Assembly: GCA_001662655.1 (NCBI GenBank)
Contig: KV460207.1
Reading direction: 5' to 3' (one strand)
From: Pseudogymnoascus verrucosus
Lineage: Eukaryota
DNA length: 64,000 nt
Of this stretch, positions 54,806 through 58,760 are shown piece after piece. Each line of letters begins with the position of its first letter. Position 1 is the stretch's first letter. Both the position numbers and the translations under genes were made by a program. The notes below the pieces were generated by a model. The model saw nothing but the letters and a program-made list of their open reading frames with translations. It had not been told where the DNA came from and searched no databases.

Positions 54806-55772
54806 TCATTCCCTTCGCCGAATTAGCAAATTCATCAGGTCTAGGTCGGCATACAAGAGAAACTCACAAGAAGGTAATCGTCACGTCCCCCTTTATAGCG
54901 GCTTTAAAGAAGACTTCAATCTCAAGATTGATGTCTAACCGTATAGATATCGGCTTCGGCTTTTCTGTCTTCTCCCCTTCTCCGCCCCCTTTCTCGTCCG
55001 CATTCTTTTTCTTGGCCCCCTCCGCCTCTTCTCCCCGATCAATCGATATCCCAATCGGCGGCCCCTCACCCCGTAGCCTTCTGATATTAAACGCACGAAG
55101 ACCTGTATCAGGCGCCTTTCCCTTATTTTCTTGCGTCGAATTATGGTCCTCCGCTACTGCCTTGCCTTTATCGCTCTTCTCAGGCGGTGGGCTTTGACGG
55201 TGTGGTGCCTCTCGTTGCGGCGACGCTGCTTTTCCTTCCGGAGGACCAGCCATCTCCTCTCCCAATCTTCCCACCCTCTCAGACCACGGAACTTGCGCCT
55301 TGGCCACGGCCGCCATACCTCCCTTCTTCTTCTTCCGCCGTTCTCTCTTATAACTGCGCGGTCGCGACGACGACGCGACAGACGCGTTATCCGACATCTC
55401 GCCCGGTTTTGACATCTCCTTCTTTTCTTTCTGCCCATTTACTTGTCCTGCAGGTAAATCTTCGAGCCCGCTCATCCCCTCATCTAGTCTCTCTGACCAC
55501 GGCAAACGCGCCTCTTGCGCCGGCGCCATGCGACTGTTCTTCTTACGACCACCACGACGGTGTCGGCGCGAGGATCCGATGGACGCATCGTCCGAGACTT
55601 CGCCTACGCGTGTCGTTGGCGGGATCGCTTGGTTCTGGGCAGGAAGGGCTGGTTCGTTGATTTTGAGGTTTCGTAGTGCCTGGTCGGGGGTGCCATCGTT
55701 GGCCATACTGGGCGAGTTTCGTGGGCGCCCGGTATTGGATCGTCGGGTTTGAATGGGAGATTGGGAGCTCAT
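54806..55772 (-). CDS. Disordered basic protein with C-terminal amphipathic beta motif (ISIRLDINLEIEVFFKAAIKGDVTITFLE)
   Basis: Long ORF; probable terminal intron 54867-54813 (GTGAGT..CTAAT..AAG) adds E*; internal duplicated SDxASxxSS...PWSER unit; start could be further upstream. Confidence 0.78.
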
Positions 55773-55950
55773 TTGCAGGGGGGTTGTTTGTTGAGTTGGG
55801 AGCGCCAGGCAAGATGGCGTCGTGGGATAGAAAGTTCCGAGGCCAGAATCGATTTTGCGTTTGCGTGATCGACGTGGATCATGGGAGGGCCTTTTTCGCG
55901 TTCTATTCAAGTAGGGGCGTTGTTCCTTGCGGGATGTGGGTCTACGAGCG

Positions 55951-56075
55951 GGTACCTGGTATTTTGCCTCCCTAGATAGCTATGTACATGTTACATGTTA
56001 CATAGCTATCTAGGGAGGCAAAATATACATGTTACATGTTACATAGCTATCTAGGGAGGCAAAATACCAGGTACC
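55951..56075. repeat. Perfect 36-bp inverted repeat with an internal 41-bp tandem duplication
   Basis: 55951-55986 is the reverse complement of 56040-56075; 55985-56025 equals 56026-56066. Confidence 0.92.
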
Positions 56076-56409
56076 ATGGGAGAGAAGAGAGTCTGCATAA
56101 GTCGGCTGCAGTGCGGAAGGCCAGGACAGTAACTCTCGACACATTTTCCATTAACATCTAACTATTGTGATGTCTAGTCCTCGTACATATATGGTTTCGT
56201 GGTGACATCACAATATGCAGCTAGTTTACCCGGGCTCGGCAGAGTGAAACACCGGTACTTTAGCACGATTTGCTTGTAACTATGTAACTAAAAATACAGG
56301 CCCTGATTCCCACCCCCCTCATCGTTGTTGCAATTATTCTCTCCATGAACACCAAACCCAAACCTAAAAATCCCACATCATATATCCTTTCTTCCCCTGT
56401 GATATCATG

Positions 56410-56538
56410 GCCGCGTAACTCTATTACTAAATACCCACAACGCAGGACCGGCAGCTCTCACAGAAGGCCAATCGCCGCGTAGCTCTATTACTTAACACCC
56501 ACAACACAGGACCAGCAGCTCTCACAGAAGGCCAATCG
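56410..56538. repeat. 64-bp tandem duplication covering the end and 3' UTR of the distal terminal exon
   Basis: GCCGCGTA.CTCTATTACT.AA.ACCCACAAC.CAGGACC.GCAGCTCTCACAGAAGGCCAATC occurs twice with a few mismatches. Confidence 0.85.
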
Positions 56539-56586
56539 TCACGTCTCCCTTCACTCTAGCGTAGAGGTCAACCTGAGGCAAAGTTA

Positions 56587-57121
56587 CTACATTAATCCAA
56601 TGGTAACATCTCCCTTCACGCGAGCGTATAAATCTACCTGTGGTGGGAATTAGCCATTGAATTTGAATTCAATGGTAACTAGGGGTTCCTGGGGGTTGGG
56701 GATAGACCTACCTCAACTTCGAGATCCAGCTCGATCTTGATCTTCAAGCTGCTGTCCCGCGTTTCCTTTGACACTGGGCGGTCCTTGATGCGTGACTCTC
56801 GGATTGCGCCTGTTGGCCCGCCCATATTGCCCGTTAGACGCTGCTGATCGTTTGCCGGTATCATCTGTTGGTTTTGGTATTGAGGAGCTGGGGGCTCGTT
56901 CTGGCTGCGGTTTTGGCGCGCTCGTTGCATGGTGCGTTGGCCTTTGGGTTGCGCCGGGACAGGCTGCTGTTGCTGTTGTTGTTGTTGTTGTTGTGGCTCT
57001 TCTTCAGTCTCTGAGTGGACATCGTCACTGGCATAATCGGCGTTTTGCTTTTCGCTTGGGGAGAGACGGTCAGCACAGGTGCGCTGGTGAGAACGAGAGA
57101 ACTTGCTTACTTTTCAGACAT
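56587..57121 (-). CDS. PolyQ disordered protein with C-terminal beta motif SSLKIKIELDLEVE-VDLYARVKGDVTIGLM; alternative terminal exon at 56572-56522
   Basis: Exons 57121-57111, about 57054-56712, 56637-56587 with canonical splice signals; tail paralogous to the neighbouring gene. Confidence 0.85.
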
Positions 57122-57904
57122 TGTGAAGGTTGTGTGGTGATGAGCGAACTAGTATTGAAAAGATATGAATATATGCAAGTTGGTTCGTAAAATCAGATGC
57201 GTATTTTCTATAATGAAGAGAGAGTATTCGAGGGCTTAAAGGAATCCGATTATATATAATAATGTGATACCGCATCTGCCATGGAATTCCCCACGTATAA
57301 CTACTTGCATGAGTAATGACGCTGGTGGTGCGTCGTCAGGGCCTGTGGATCATCAAGATCCCTGCAGCCGTATCCGCCGTTGGCTTGCGAAATCAGGTTC
57401 TCTGCACAAGTCAGGTATTGTGGCTCTGTGGCTGAAGTTTCGGACCTGGTCCGGAGTAACAGACGGGACAGCAACCCACTAGCATATGGGCCACTAAGTG
57501 GTGGAACACGAAATTGCGGAGAGTAGGAGGCTGGACACATATGACGTCGTATTTGCATACTCCGTACAAGGTTCCACTATGTATCTCCATGAAGACCCCG
57601 CGTGAGTCTAGATTGTGAACCGGGATACATGGGAAATACGAATTATCTATTGGCCTTTCCATAATACAAACTCCCATAAGACGCAAGGTTGCATCGTGGT
57701 GATGTCAGAAGGGTGGCCTGTAGAAACAGTGTCAACCTAAAAAAAGATCGTTGCGGCTCAGATTGCAGACTGATCAAGTCTGCGCTCCCACGAATGTAGC
57801 GCGCTACAAGATATACTGAAAATCTGATCGTAACTCACTACTAGCGTTAGTGAGAGCTTAATACTATTACGCACACCTTCTTGTCGCAAAAACGAAAGAG
57901 CGTT

Positions 57905-58760
57905 ATGGTTCTCGGAATTATCACCTCAATAGCTGCGTGTCCCGCCATAATTGGCACGACAGAAGCTATCCGGCAAGGCCAGCGCCAGAATGCGCGTGAG
58001 CAGCATCGCGGGCGAAAATCCAATCTCCTTGTATCCTGCTCCGATCCTTCACGGAAAGCAAGGGATATCAACGGAGGAACCATTGTGCTACGGAACAACA
58101 AAGTAAGGAACCCCATCGCAAGTCTGCAGAAAACCTCAAACGAAGACTGACGAAGGCGCGCTTGGTTAGCTCTATGTCACCACCGTGAGCCCCCGTGGCA
58201 GGGCCGCAAAAGAAAGGAGAGAATACGAAAACGAGAAGGATCCAGGCCGATTAAATGAGCGCGGCCATCTTTTTGCTGGCTATTTCTTTGGATATCCAGA
58301 CACAAAATGGGGCCGCCGAGGGGATGGTCTTGTGTCTACAATCTCCGATGACCCCCCTCAGCTGAACTGGATATATGTGGACAAAGACACATACGAAGTG
58401 AAATATGGCCTACGCGTTCAGGCAGAGGGAAACCTTGTTGGGCCGTGGAACTGCACGCCAATTGATAAACGGTTAACACTGGAAGGGTGGGAAGGGTTTA
58501 CGGTTGTAGAAGAGGAGGAGGATGTATGGGCACTGTATTTTGACAAGGATGATGATGGGCTAGAGGAGAAGGTAGAGCCGAATAGGAGGATTATGGAGAT
58601 TGAGTTGATAAGGAAAGAGATGAGGATAGGGAAGGAGGAAGTGGATATGGCGGAGCAAGAAGAGAAGTTACGGAATGGAAACGAGGTGAAGAACAAAAGG
58701 AAAGGTGGGGAGAACGAAGAGAAGAATGAGAAAGATAAGAACAGTACTCGTGCGGCATAG
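57905..58760 (+). CDS. Hypothetical protein with globular aromatic-rich domain; exons 57905-58102, 58170-58760
   Basis: MVLGIITSIAACPAIIGTTEAIRQGQ..., GHLFAGYFFGYP, GLVSTISDDPPQLNWIYVDKDTYEVKYG, GPWNCT, EGWEGF, WALYFDKDDDGL; phase-0 intron. Confidence 0.85.

Follow-up and report, generated by a model that had tools for sequence, protein, structure and literature searches.

The minus strand of positions 56300-58200 of a 64,000-nucleotide (nt) stretch of contig KV460207.1 of the fungus Pseudogymnoascus verrucosus (the window) holds a small three-exon gene, with its ATG at 57121, whose coding end is present twice in tandem, as copy 1 (exon A, 56587-56637) and copy 2 (exon B, 56522-56572), each 51 nt long. 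The pair probably goes back to an ancient event in which the last 16 codons and the stop were duplicated in tandem, with an intron-like first copy and with either ending giving the same protein bar the final residue. Specifically, the two units would be an old duplication in a small, uncharacterised ascomycete protein with a very conserved C-terminus, made at an AG/GT site (Glu/Val; slashes mark junctions) in such a way that copy 1 and the spacer behind it take on the anatomy of a short intron, with a GTA start, a branch-like motif over a Leu-Met codon pair and a YAG end. When this segment is kept in the message, translation would stop in copy 1 (...GLM), and when it is spliced out, translation would stop in copy 2 (...GLL). 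Because the protein would be the same bar its last residue either way, both copies would stay under selection at the protein level.

The sequence-only reading of this DNA had placed two tandem 51-nt exons behind a single donor, each directly after CAG, and these coordinates and translations hold. In the window, the donor GAG/GTAGGT at 56711 is shared by two homologous terminal exons with acceptors of their own, CCACAG for exon A and CCTCAG for exon B, a layout that recurs in the metagenomic locus L065 and in the L024-L034 group. Exon A, which starts with the donor-like GTAGAT, is established by its translation (VDLYARVKGDVTIGLM and a stop) and by RNA; exon B translates to VDLYARVKGDVTIGLL and a stop, with B-type junctions known from relatives. 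Between them lies a pyrimidine-rich spacer of 14 nt (56573-56586), whose terminal CAG is the acceptor of copy 2. The comparison of the units codon by codon likewise returns the nine synonymous differences (12 base changes), the one non-synonymous codon (ATG/CTG, Met/Leu) and the differing stops (TAG versus TGA) that had been reported, with 15 of the 16 residues matching. A repeat search retrieves the pair as family D2 (79% identity over 47 nt, at a spacing of 65 nt); the similarity ends at the stop codons, and the flanking sequences do not align. Exons 1, 2 and A translate exactly to the 134-residue protein VE01_00776 (P0125) of P. verrucosus, and residue 134 is the sole difference in the B-ending version. 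A chance origin of the pair is not credible in view of the residue match and its recurrence in 37 other distinct loci. The last ~50 residues of the protein are nearly invariant (34 invariant columns among 19 aligned sequences), and with a peptide so constrained a mostly synonymous difference between the copies is in itself no proof that both are used.

Comparison across relatives carries the argument further. A family-alignment scan of metagenome contigs gives 594 pattern matches and 146 confirmed relatives, the best 80 of which were kept as loci and, after identical segments were merged, represent 60 distinct loci (59 metagenomic loci and the window). Both copies are present in 38 of these 60, 37 of them by motif scan and the last being L019; the presence of both exons in sister species was a check that the sequence-only reading had named. 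Judged by the exon 2 peptide, the two-copy loci include L001, near Pseudogymnoascus (91%), L005-L007, near Hyaloscypha (93-99%), a Drepanopeziza-like locus (73%), a Lachnellula-like locus (78%), and distant ones with at most 45% identity to any named protein. The copy order is constant, with copy 1 ending in Met and copy 2 in Leu; the final codon of copy 1 is ATG in all 23 distinct sequences, while the final Leu of copy 2 is written as CTG (16), TTG (5), CTC (2) or TTA (1) among 24. At L019 (2702-2873), copy 2 is split between ...ARVK and GDVT... by a 121-nt intron of its own (GTACGT...GCTAAT...TAG), which keeps the frame (VDLYARVK/GDVTIGLL and stop). The other distinct loci comprise 19 with a single ...GLM copy, L036 with a ...GLLE ending, the B-form, transcript-like L003, and the odd locus L041. 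The last shows the gene end on both strands at the same coordinate (one copy on plus, two on minus) and is probably a palindromic mis-assembly.

Both copies are under long-term purifying selection at the protein level, as had been proposed from the window alone. In Nei-Gojobori proportions over all pairs, the synonymous (pS) and non-synonymous (pN) differences are 0.698 and 0.028 for copy 1 (23 distinct sequences) and 0.735 and 0.063 for copy 2 (24 distinct sequences), and pN/pS is below 0.1 in each. The identity of copy 1 to copy 2 is about the same within a locus (0.757) as between loci (0.733), so gene conversion is not keeping the copies alike and the duplication is older than the divergence of these lineages. 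Decay is seen in both directions. Specifically, two independent contigs, L018 and L027, share an intact copy 2 and a copy 1 that has lost 2 nt (~1491-1610 in L018), and with copy 1 frameshifted the conserved ending can be obtained only from the spliced form; conversely, copy 2 of L039 is without its YAG and carries four replacements. The frameshifted reading of L018/L027 stops exactly at the TAG ahead of copy 2.

Unlike the layout described from the window, in which exon A is a separate exon, most relatives have copy 1 contiguous with exon 2, and this points to an optional intron rather than an exon of its own. Copy 1 follows exon 2 directly in 27 of the 29 loci where both copies start with Val, and since these include contigs of 38.7 kb to 1.1 Mb, the arrangement is genomic. 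L001 and L002 retain intron 1 and yet have copy 1 joined to exon 2, and are therefore DNA and not complementary DNA. Given this contiguity, copy 2 could be translated only through a splice from the Glu/Val junction to the base before copy 2, and the codons fit such a splice. Copy 1 opens with the Val codon GTA in 28 of 29 loci, a codon that accounts for 6 of the 134 other Val codons there (Fisher 1.5e-24, without correction for shared ancestry); the same position is GTA in 0 of 30 second copies and in 3 of 23 loci scored as one-copy. Next in copy 1 comes GAT in 20 of the 23 distinct sequences, with GAC (9), GAT (8), GAG (6) and GAA (1) in copy 2. The three bases before copy 2 (n = 30) are TAG in 25 cases, CAG in four and TAC in one, the exception being L039. 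Overall, the 5' boundary reads GAG/GTA in 28 of 29 loci and the 3' boundary YAG/GTN in 29 of 30, and the span from GTA to YAG (copy 1 plus spacer) measures 56-80 nt in 28 of 29.

Short fungal introns generally have a GTRNGT donor, a CTRAY-like branch site, a YAG acceptor and a length of about 50-80 nt, and the values above match this consensus. In 28 of 29 loci, the stretch 5-40 nt from the 3' end holds a single yTrAy motif, which the Leu-Met codons of copy 1 (YTR-ATG) supply at a distance of 10-34 nt from the YAG, and in the window the TTA-ATG codons of exon A are likewise the only yTrAy branch-like motif ahead of acceptor B. The YTR leucine codon taken alone does not discriminate, since it is found in 37 of 37 first copies and 23 of 37 second copies but also in 22 of 23 one-copy loci. 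A role as the branch adenosine may be what keeps the Met of copy 1 fixed, although single-copy genes also end in Met, which is thus probably the ancestral residue.

The position of the splice differs among lineages, and the conserved part of copy 2 follows it. In L062, a donor-like GTATGC lies at Leu/Tyr within copy 1, and copy 2 is conserved only from the Tyr on, right after TAG. At Leu/Tyr, the L024-L034 group has an ordinary intron (GTAAGT), with both copies starting there, each behind AG, and in the window and L065 an ordinary intron sits at Glu/Val and both copies start with Val behind CAG or TAG. This tracking indicates selection on exactly the part that splicing would put in frame. Together with the boundaries, codons and lengths described above, it makes an optional intron that arose by tandem duplication at an AG/GT site the best reading of copy 1.

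RNA evidence comes from runs X3, X4, X6 and X18, all as Logan contigs, which drop rare forms. A 267-nt contig of X3 (record 7, one mismatch) has intron 2 removed, with a joint at 56633/56708 that skips 74 nt (CT..AC, six ambiguous letters), and continues unbroken through exon A, the spacer, exon B and the downstream 64-nt repeat to 56422. A near-identical organism therefore uses acceptor A and carries exon B in the 3' untranslated region (UTR) of that message. Removal of intron 2 is also seen in one further X3 contig, from a relative, and in two X4 contigs (summed depth 58.4). Intron 1 is spliced in X6 and X18, so that these libraries hold spliced RNA, and no RNA contig covers 56644-56680, which is consistent with a spliced-out intron and is not proof of absence. 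Of the two junctions named for checking by the sequence-only reading, the 56712-56637 type is thus present in near-identical RNA, and the 56712-56572 type appears only in relatives. Its proposal of alternative 3' exon use with different 3' UTRs fares accordingly: alternative use is the best reading and largely right, and the UTRs are nested rather than different, since the A-form message runs through exon B to at least 56422.

The B-type junction is carried by one X4 contig (depth 2.83) from a relative of at least 86% likeness, in which 32 letters connect exon 2 with the sequence behind exon B; on the minus strand, they are the start of a B-type copy (Val GTT, Arg AGG) set directly on exon 2. 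This contig shares a 4-nt insertion at 56418 and the change 56438 C>G with X18 record 1, which has 84 letters between exon 2 and the UTR, 58 more than the X4 B-type contig; the extra letters fit either a retained copy 1 with a 7-nt spacer or a plain 58-nt intron. In relatives, the loose ends of X3 record 8 and of X18 records 2 and 3 contain a ...GLM stop and then run ~10-15 nt into another VDL... copy. Moreover, L003 ends in 19 A's, is without intron 1 and has exon 2 joined to a B-type copy, and copy 2 of L013, L015 and L018 agrees with it in the Val codon (GTC), the final Leu and the 3' UTR that follows (85-89% over 56-68 nt); from these features L003 is best read as a polyadenylated B-form messenger RNA.

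Gene models reflect both endings. A contiguous ...GLL ending is present in 9 of 121 family proteins. The Pseudogymnoascus model V496_04128 ends in GLL and shares an identical exon 2 with V498_04441, the model of which ends ...AKVRGDVTIGLM (GLM), so the annotators chose different acceptors for the same gene; a practical consequence is that the annotations of near-identical genomes disagree on the ending. Among the 10 protein clusters read, six of them with members fetched, both endings occur together only for P0005/P0128, which are Pseudogymnoascus models, and in the hit list the B-form proteins have no A-form partner above about 85% identity.

For the window lineage (P. verrucosus or a near-identical strain), the proposed sequence of events has one further step, in which an extra copy in front decayed to the 74-nt intron 2 and acquired the strong donor GTAGGT. 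From exon 2, the splice to acceptor A in this layout is the one observed in near-twin RNA, and acceptor B would be reached either directly or by a second splice from the recreated GAG/GTAGAT, such that one pre-mRNA (precursor messenger RNA) would yield both forms. Use of exon B in P. verrucosus itself is thus presumed from its relatives and its sequence. The benefit would presumably be that a correct protein is made with or without removal of the last intron, while splicing or the Met/Leu difference brings some gain; the fixed Met/Leu difference may separate two protein forms. A stronger version of this proposal is that the ending is 'splice-proof', in that the same protein results with or without the intron, the splice signals (a putative GTA-GAT donor and a putative Leu-Met branch site) are accommodated in synonymous codons, and only a C-terminal Met/Leu is switched; the odds for this version fall a little below even. 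If it is true, the Met and Leu forms may differ, for example, in oxidation resistance, or in how much is produced when cold or stress impairs splicing.

Several observations weigh against an optional intron with two used endings. The codon counts that describe its boundaries ignore shared ancestry. The sequence GTAGAT is without the +5 G usual in fungal donors, which suggests a weak, optional donor, and splicing from it may be inefficient or, in some lineages, absent. About one third of the loci (19 of 60), putative outgroups with the unduplicated gene, have one ...GLM copy, and many of them belong to longer proteins. Among the near-identical contigs (X3 and X4, 99% likeness), there is no junction from exon 2 to B, in a type of data that drops rare forms, and the two junctions are not observed in the RNA of one organism, the near-identical contigs giving A only and the B-type contig coming from a relative. 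Lastly, the genomes behind L003 and the X4 B-type contig could hold a B-type copy alone, or copy 1 as a plain 58-nt intron, in which case these transcripts prove that B-type copies are coding exons and not that both forms come from one gene.

These points lead to the most serious competing account, in which only acceptor A is used in the window species and exon B is an untranslated 3' UTR relic that was functional recently or elsewhere. Its appeal is that near-identical RNA gave junctions from exon 2 to A only, that the A-form message carries B as UTR, that the annotated protein is the A form, and that the new strong donor GTAGGT with acceptor A forms a complete ordinary intron. It is nevertheless unlikely: exon B is free of replacements beyond the family-wide Leu and keeps its CAG and an upstream TTAAT branch-like motif, whereas true decay of a copy shows frameshifts or replacements, as in L018 and L039; moreover, another Pseudogymnoascus gene model uses B, and the relative's RNA contig joins exon 2 to a B-type copy. 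The location of copy 2 in the 3' UTR of the sole isoform seen in a near-identical organism would also suit a conserved RNA element, such as a protein- or RNA-binding site, rather than a coding function. This is improbable, since the variation of copy 2 is concentrated at synonymous positions of one frame, with several codons per conserved residue, and since the intron that interrupts copy 2 of L019 preserves the frame; in addition, 55500-58000 has no match to any Rfam family.

The two remaining accounts concern where exon B came from. The sequence-only reading had offered, as its second option, the capture of the end of a diverged homologue, and in general terms exon B could be a recent capture from a paralogue or another species, or a product of gene conversion, with a synonymous pattern that mirrors the conservation of the source peptide. 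A near-invariant family peptide does imply that any homologous copy differs mainly at synonymous sites, and Pseudogymnoascus paralogues ending in ...GLLE exist, as does L036 with the same ending. However, the pair keeps its position and its Met-then-Leu order wherever it is found among the 60 distinct loci (38 of them), with Hyaloscypha-, Drepanopeziza- and Lachnellula-like contigs in that number, L001 and L002 have a homologous 3' UTR behind B, the within-locus identity about equals that between loci, and the paralogues end in LLE and not LL, which together make a capture very improbable and leave that option without standing. An assembly artefact, as a collapsed or chimeric join of two alleles or strains, is the least probable explanation, with a chance close to nil. 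Short tandem repeats are classic sites of assembly error, and the region holds three repeat events; against this, all sampled 31-mers of the stretch are found in the independent contig set X1 (share 1.00; X1 is possibly the source sample) and 84% of the sampled words in X2, A, the spacer, B and the 64-nt repeat lie together, with one mismatch, on an RNA contig of a different sample, and dozens of independent contigs have the same layout.

The window's lineage has repeat-derived features that go beyond those noted at the outset, namely an intron 2 that resembles exon A and a 64-nt duplication that overlaps the end of exon B. L001 (84% DNA identity) and L002 (75%) are without the 74-nt intron 2, exactly at the Glu/Val junction, and without the second copy of the 64-nt repeat. 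Intron 2 (56638-56711, GTAGGT...CCACAG, spliced out in the X3 and X4 contigs) aligns globally with exon A plus spacer at z 4.9, with 0 of 2000 shuffles as good, and locally at z 4.6 (5 of 2000 shuffles), the control, intron 1, giving z -1.25. At the start of intron 2, GTAGGTCTAT corresponds to GTAGATTTAT, and 13 positions of a 14-nt stretch agree with the ...VTIG... codons. The upstream introns of other loci have no such likeness to the exon (L065 z 1.6, L024 z -0.6, L029 z -0.5). On this alignment evidence, intron 2 is read as a putative decayed, older-looking third copy ('copy 0') that would no longer be coding and would have acquired a consensus donor. Its retention would give the reading VGLSPTPRNP and a stop; the Logan protein P0126, of the same 90% cluster, reads through a similar intron, so other Pseudogymnoascus share such an intron. 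Within it, 56654-56675 on the minus strand form a perfect 9-bp inverted repeat with a 4-nt loop (CCATTGAAT / ATTCAATGG), which may account for the 9 nt by which intron 2 exceeds the exon A unit.

The 64-nt tandem duplication (56407-56534, 91-92% identity) consists of the copies 56407-56470 and 56471-56534 in the 3' UTR on the minus strand and starts inside exon B, whereby the last codons, TIGLL and stop, appear a third time, as a partial copy without a preceding AG. It is present in the RNA contig X3 record 7, from another sample. The small region is thus one that has been tandemly duplicated at least three times. A separate event is suggested by the Pseudogymnoascus paralogue P0022 (V491_00142), the model of which runs, in another frame, across a LKIKIELDLEVEVDLYARVKGDVTIG region present in full in two identical copies, in keeping with an independent, recent and larger tandem duplication at a paralogue's 3' end.

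A model in which introns arise through tandem duplication at AGGT is reportedly due to Rogers in 1989. Hellsten et al. (2011; PMC3265369) showed that a working intron can arise in a single step through segmental duplication, and Ma et al. (2016; PMC4974935) restate the AGGT model with a case from potato; to judge by these two papers and Lehmann et al. (2010; PMC2891723), the cases known for the model are few. The arrangement described here resembles such cases in that the intron-like segment duplicates the exon behind it and has AG/GT at both boundaries, that removal of the copy 1 segment would restore the unduplicated reading frame, and that one copy later decays to a plain intron, as in the putative copy 0 (intron 2 of the window) and in L018. 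It differs from them in that the duplicated piece carries a stop, so that the unspliced message is also a complete and correct gene, in that both copies are under protein-level selection in many lineages without quick decay of one, in that a coding Leu-Met pair doubles as a branch-like motif, and in that the host is a fungus.

Tandem mutually exclusive exons of animals share with the window the homologous tandem exons, the acceptor for each, and the fact that only one of them ends the protein. Here, unlike in the animal systems, the products differ by one C-terminal residue and not by a functionally distinct segment, the exons are terminal and carry stops, the first 'exon' is contiguous with the upstream exon in most relatives, and the two junctions come from the RNA of different organisms. 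Exitrons are introns inside coding sequence that contain no stop and whose retention adds residues; the segment described here is likewise an intron inside annotated coding sequence, and its retention still yields a protein, but translation terminates in the segment when it is kept, and splicing puts an equivalent ending in its place. Recursive splice sites, in which an acceptor is directly followed by a donor, occur in long introns of Drosophila and vertebrates. A comparable putative site is the CAG/GTAGAT at the start of exon A, where an acceptor lies against a donor-like sequence; as in recursive splicing, joining exon 2 to A would recreate GAG/GTAGAT, a site apparently used as a donor in relatives. 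The introns here measure 65-74 nt rather than tens of kilobases, and the likeness is known from the sequence motif.

The literature search, which left subscription journals outside its reach, returned nothing on this gene family or on such an arrangement in fungi, no fungal example of intron gain by tandem duplication, and nothing on fungal terminal exon duplication; six locus tags of the family are unmentioned, and the matches listed for alternative splicing in Pseudogymnoascus do not concern this gene. Intron gain by duplication is itself known, and what sets this case apart is a duplicate that carries a stop, the long persistence of both copies as coding sequence, the placement of splice signals in codons, and the fungal setting. 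Clear, datable examples of the origin of spliceosomal introns are scarce, and this family is a natural series that includes a coding end serving as a putative optional intron, decay to a plain intron, loss of copy 2 (L039) and renewed duplication. It also displays an unusual double coding, with Val-Asp codons that form a donor and Leu-Met codons that form a branch-like motif. Should the Met/Leu switch prove to be regulated, it would give filamentous fungi a very small instance of alternative splicing that is easy to assay. Cold-adapted species and the bat pathogen P. destructans are among the members of the genus Pseudogymnoascus.

A word-indexed search gives 248 relatives of the protein with E <= 0.01. 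Those with names belong to the Leotiomycetes (Pseudogymnoascus, Hyaloscypha, Halenospora, Chlorociboria, Scytalidium, Lachnellula, Drepanopeziza, Venustampulla) and the Onygenales (Coccidioides, Myotisia, Emydomyces). The N-terminal half of the protein is variable and Gln-rich. Five family members tested against Pfam have no match below E 0.01, the ESM Atlas returns only 'hypothetical protein' clusters with scores of at most 0.88, and a search for longer relatives yields 17 proteins that are unnamed or merely fused-looking, with no named one. An AlphaFold2 model has a mean predicted local distance difference test score (pLDDT) of 54, with no secondary structure and no confident fold. In run X4, 56570-56760 are covered by a very deep homologue (word depth 2000-4000) with an A-like ending and then an unrelated 3' UTR; the family is evidently very highly expressed in some organism of that run.

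The remaining parts of the gene, all on the minus strand, are as follows. Exon 1 (57111-57121) consists of the ATG and 8 nt and is assigned from sequence and from the translation match to P0125. Intron 1 (57055-57110, 56 nt, GTAAGC...CCCAAG) is supported by the RNA joint 57054/57111, which skips 56 nt in X6 and X18, and it is also present in the genomic relatives L001 and L002. Exon 2 (56712-57054), defined by translation and family alignment, contains the Gln-rich variable N-terminal part and ends ...SSLKIKIELDLEVE. Its CAA/CAG (poly-Gln) run at 56963-56998 varies in length among close relatives, being 12-15 nt shorter in L001 and L002 and encoding 9-10 Gln in Pseudogymnoascus proteins. Downstream of the 64-nt duplication, the remaining 3' UTR occupies 56335-56406, as X6 record 21 covers 56335-56536 with two mismatches. 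The plus strand overlapping 56400-56750 has no open reading frame of at least 70 residues. About 350 nt downstream of the gene's transcript end, a 41-nt tandem repeat in two copies (55982-56063, 98-100% identity) contains TACATGT heptamer repeats. Lastly, in an alignment of 55000-58500 to L002, the gene matches in one orientation and its flanks in the reverse one, which indicates an inversion of ~1.1 kb between the two lineages that holds just this small gene.

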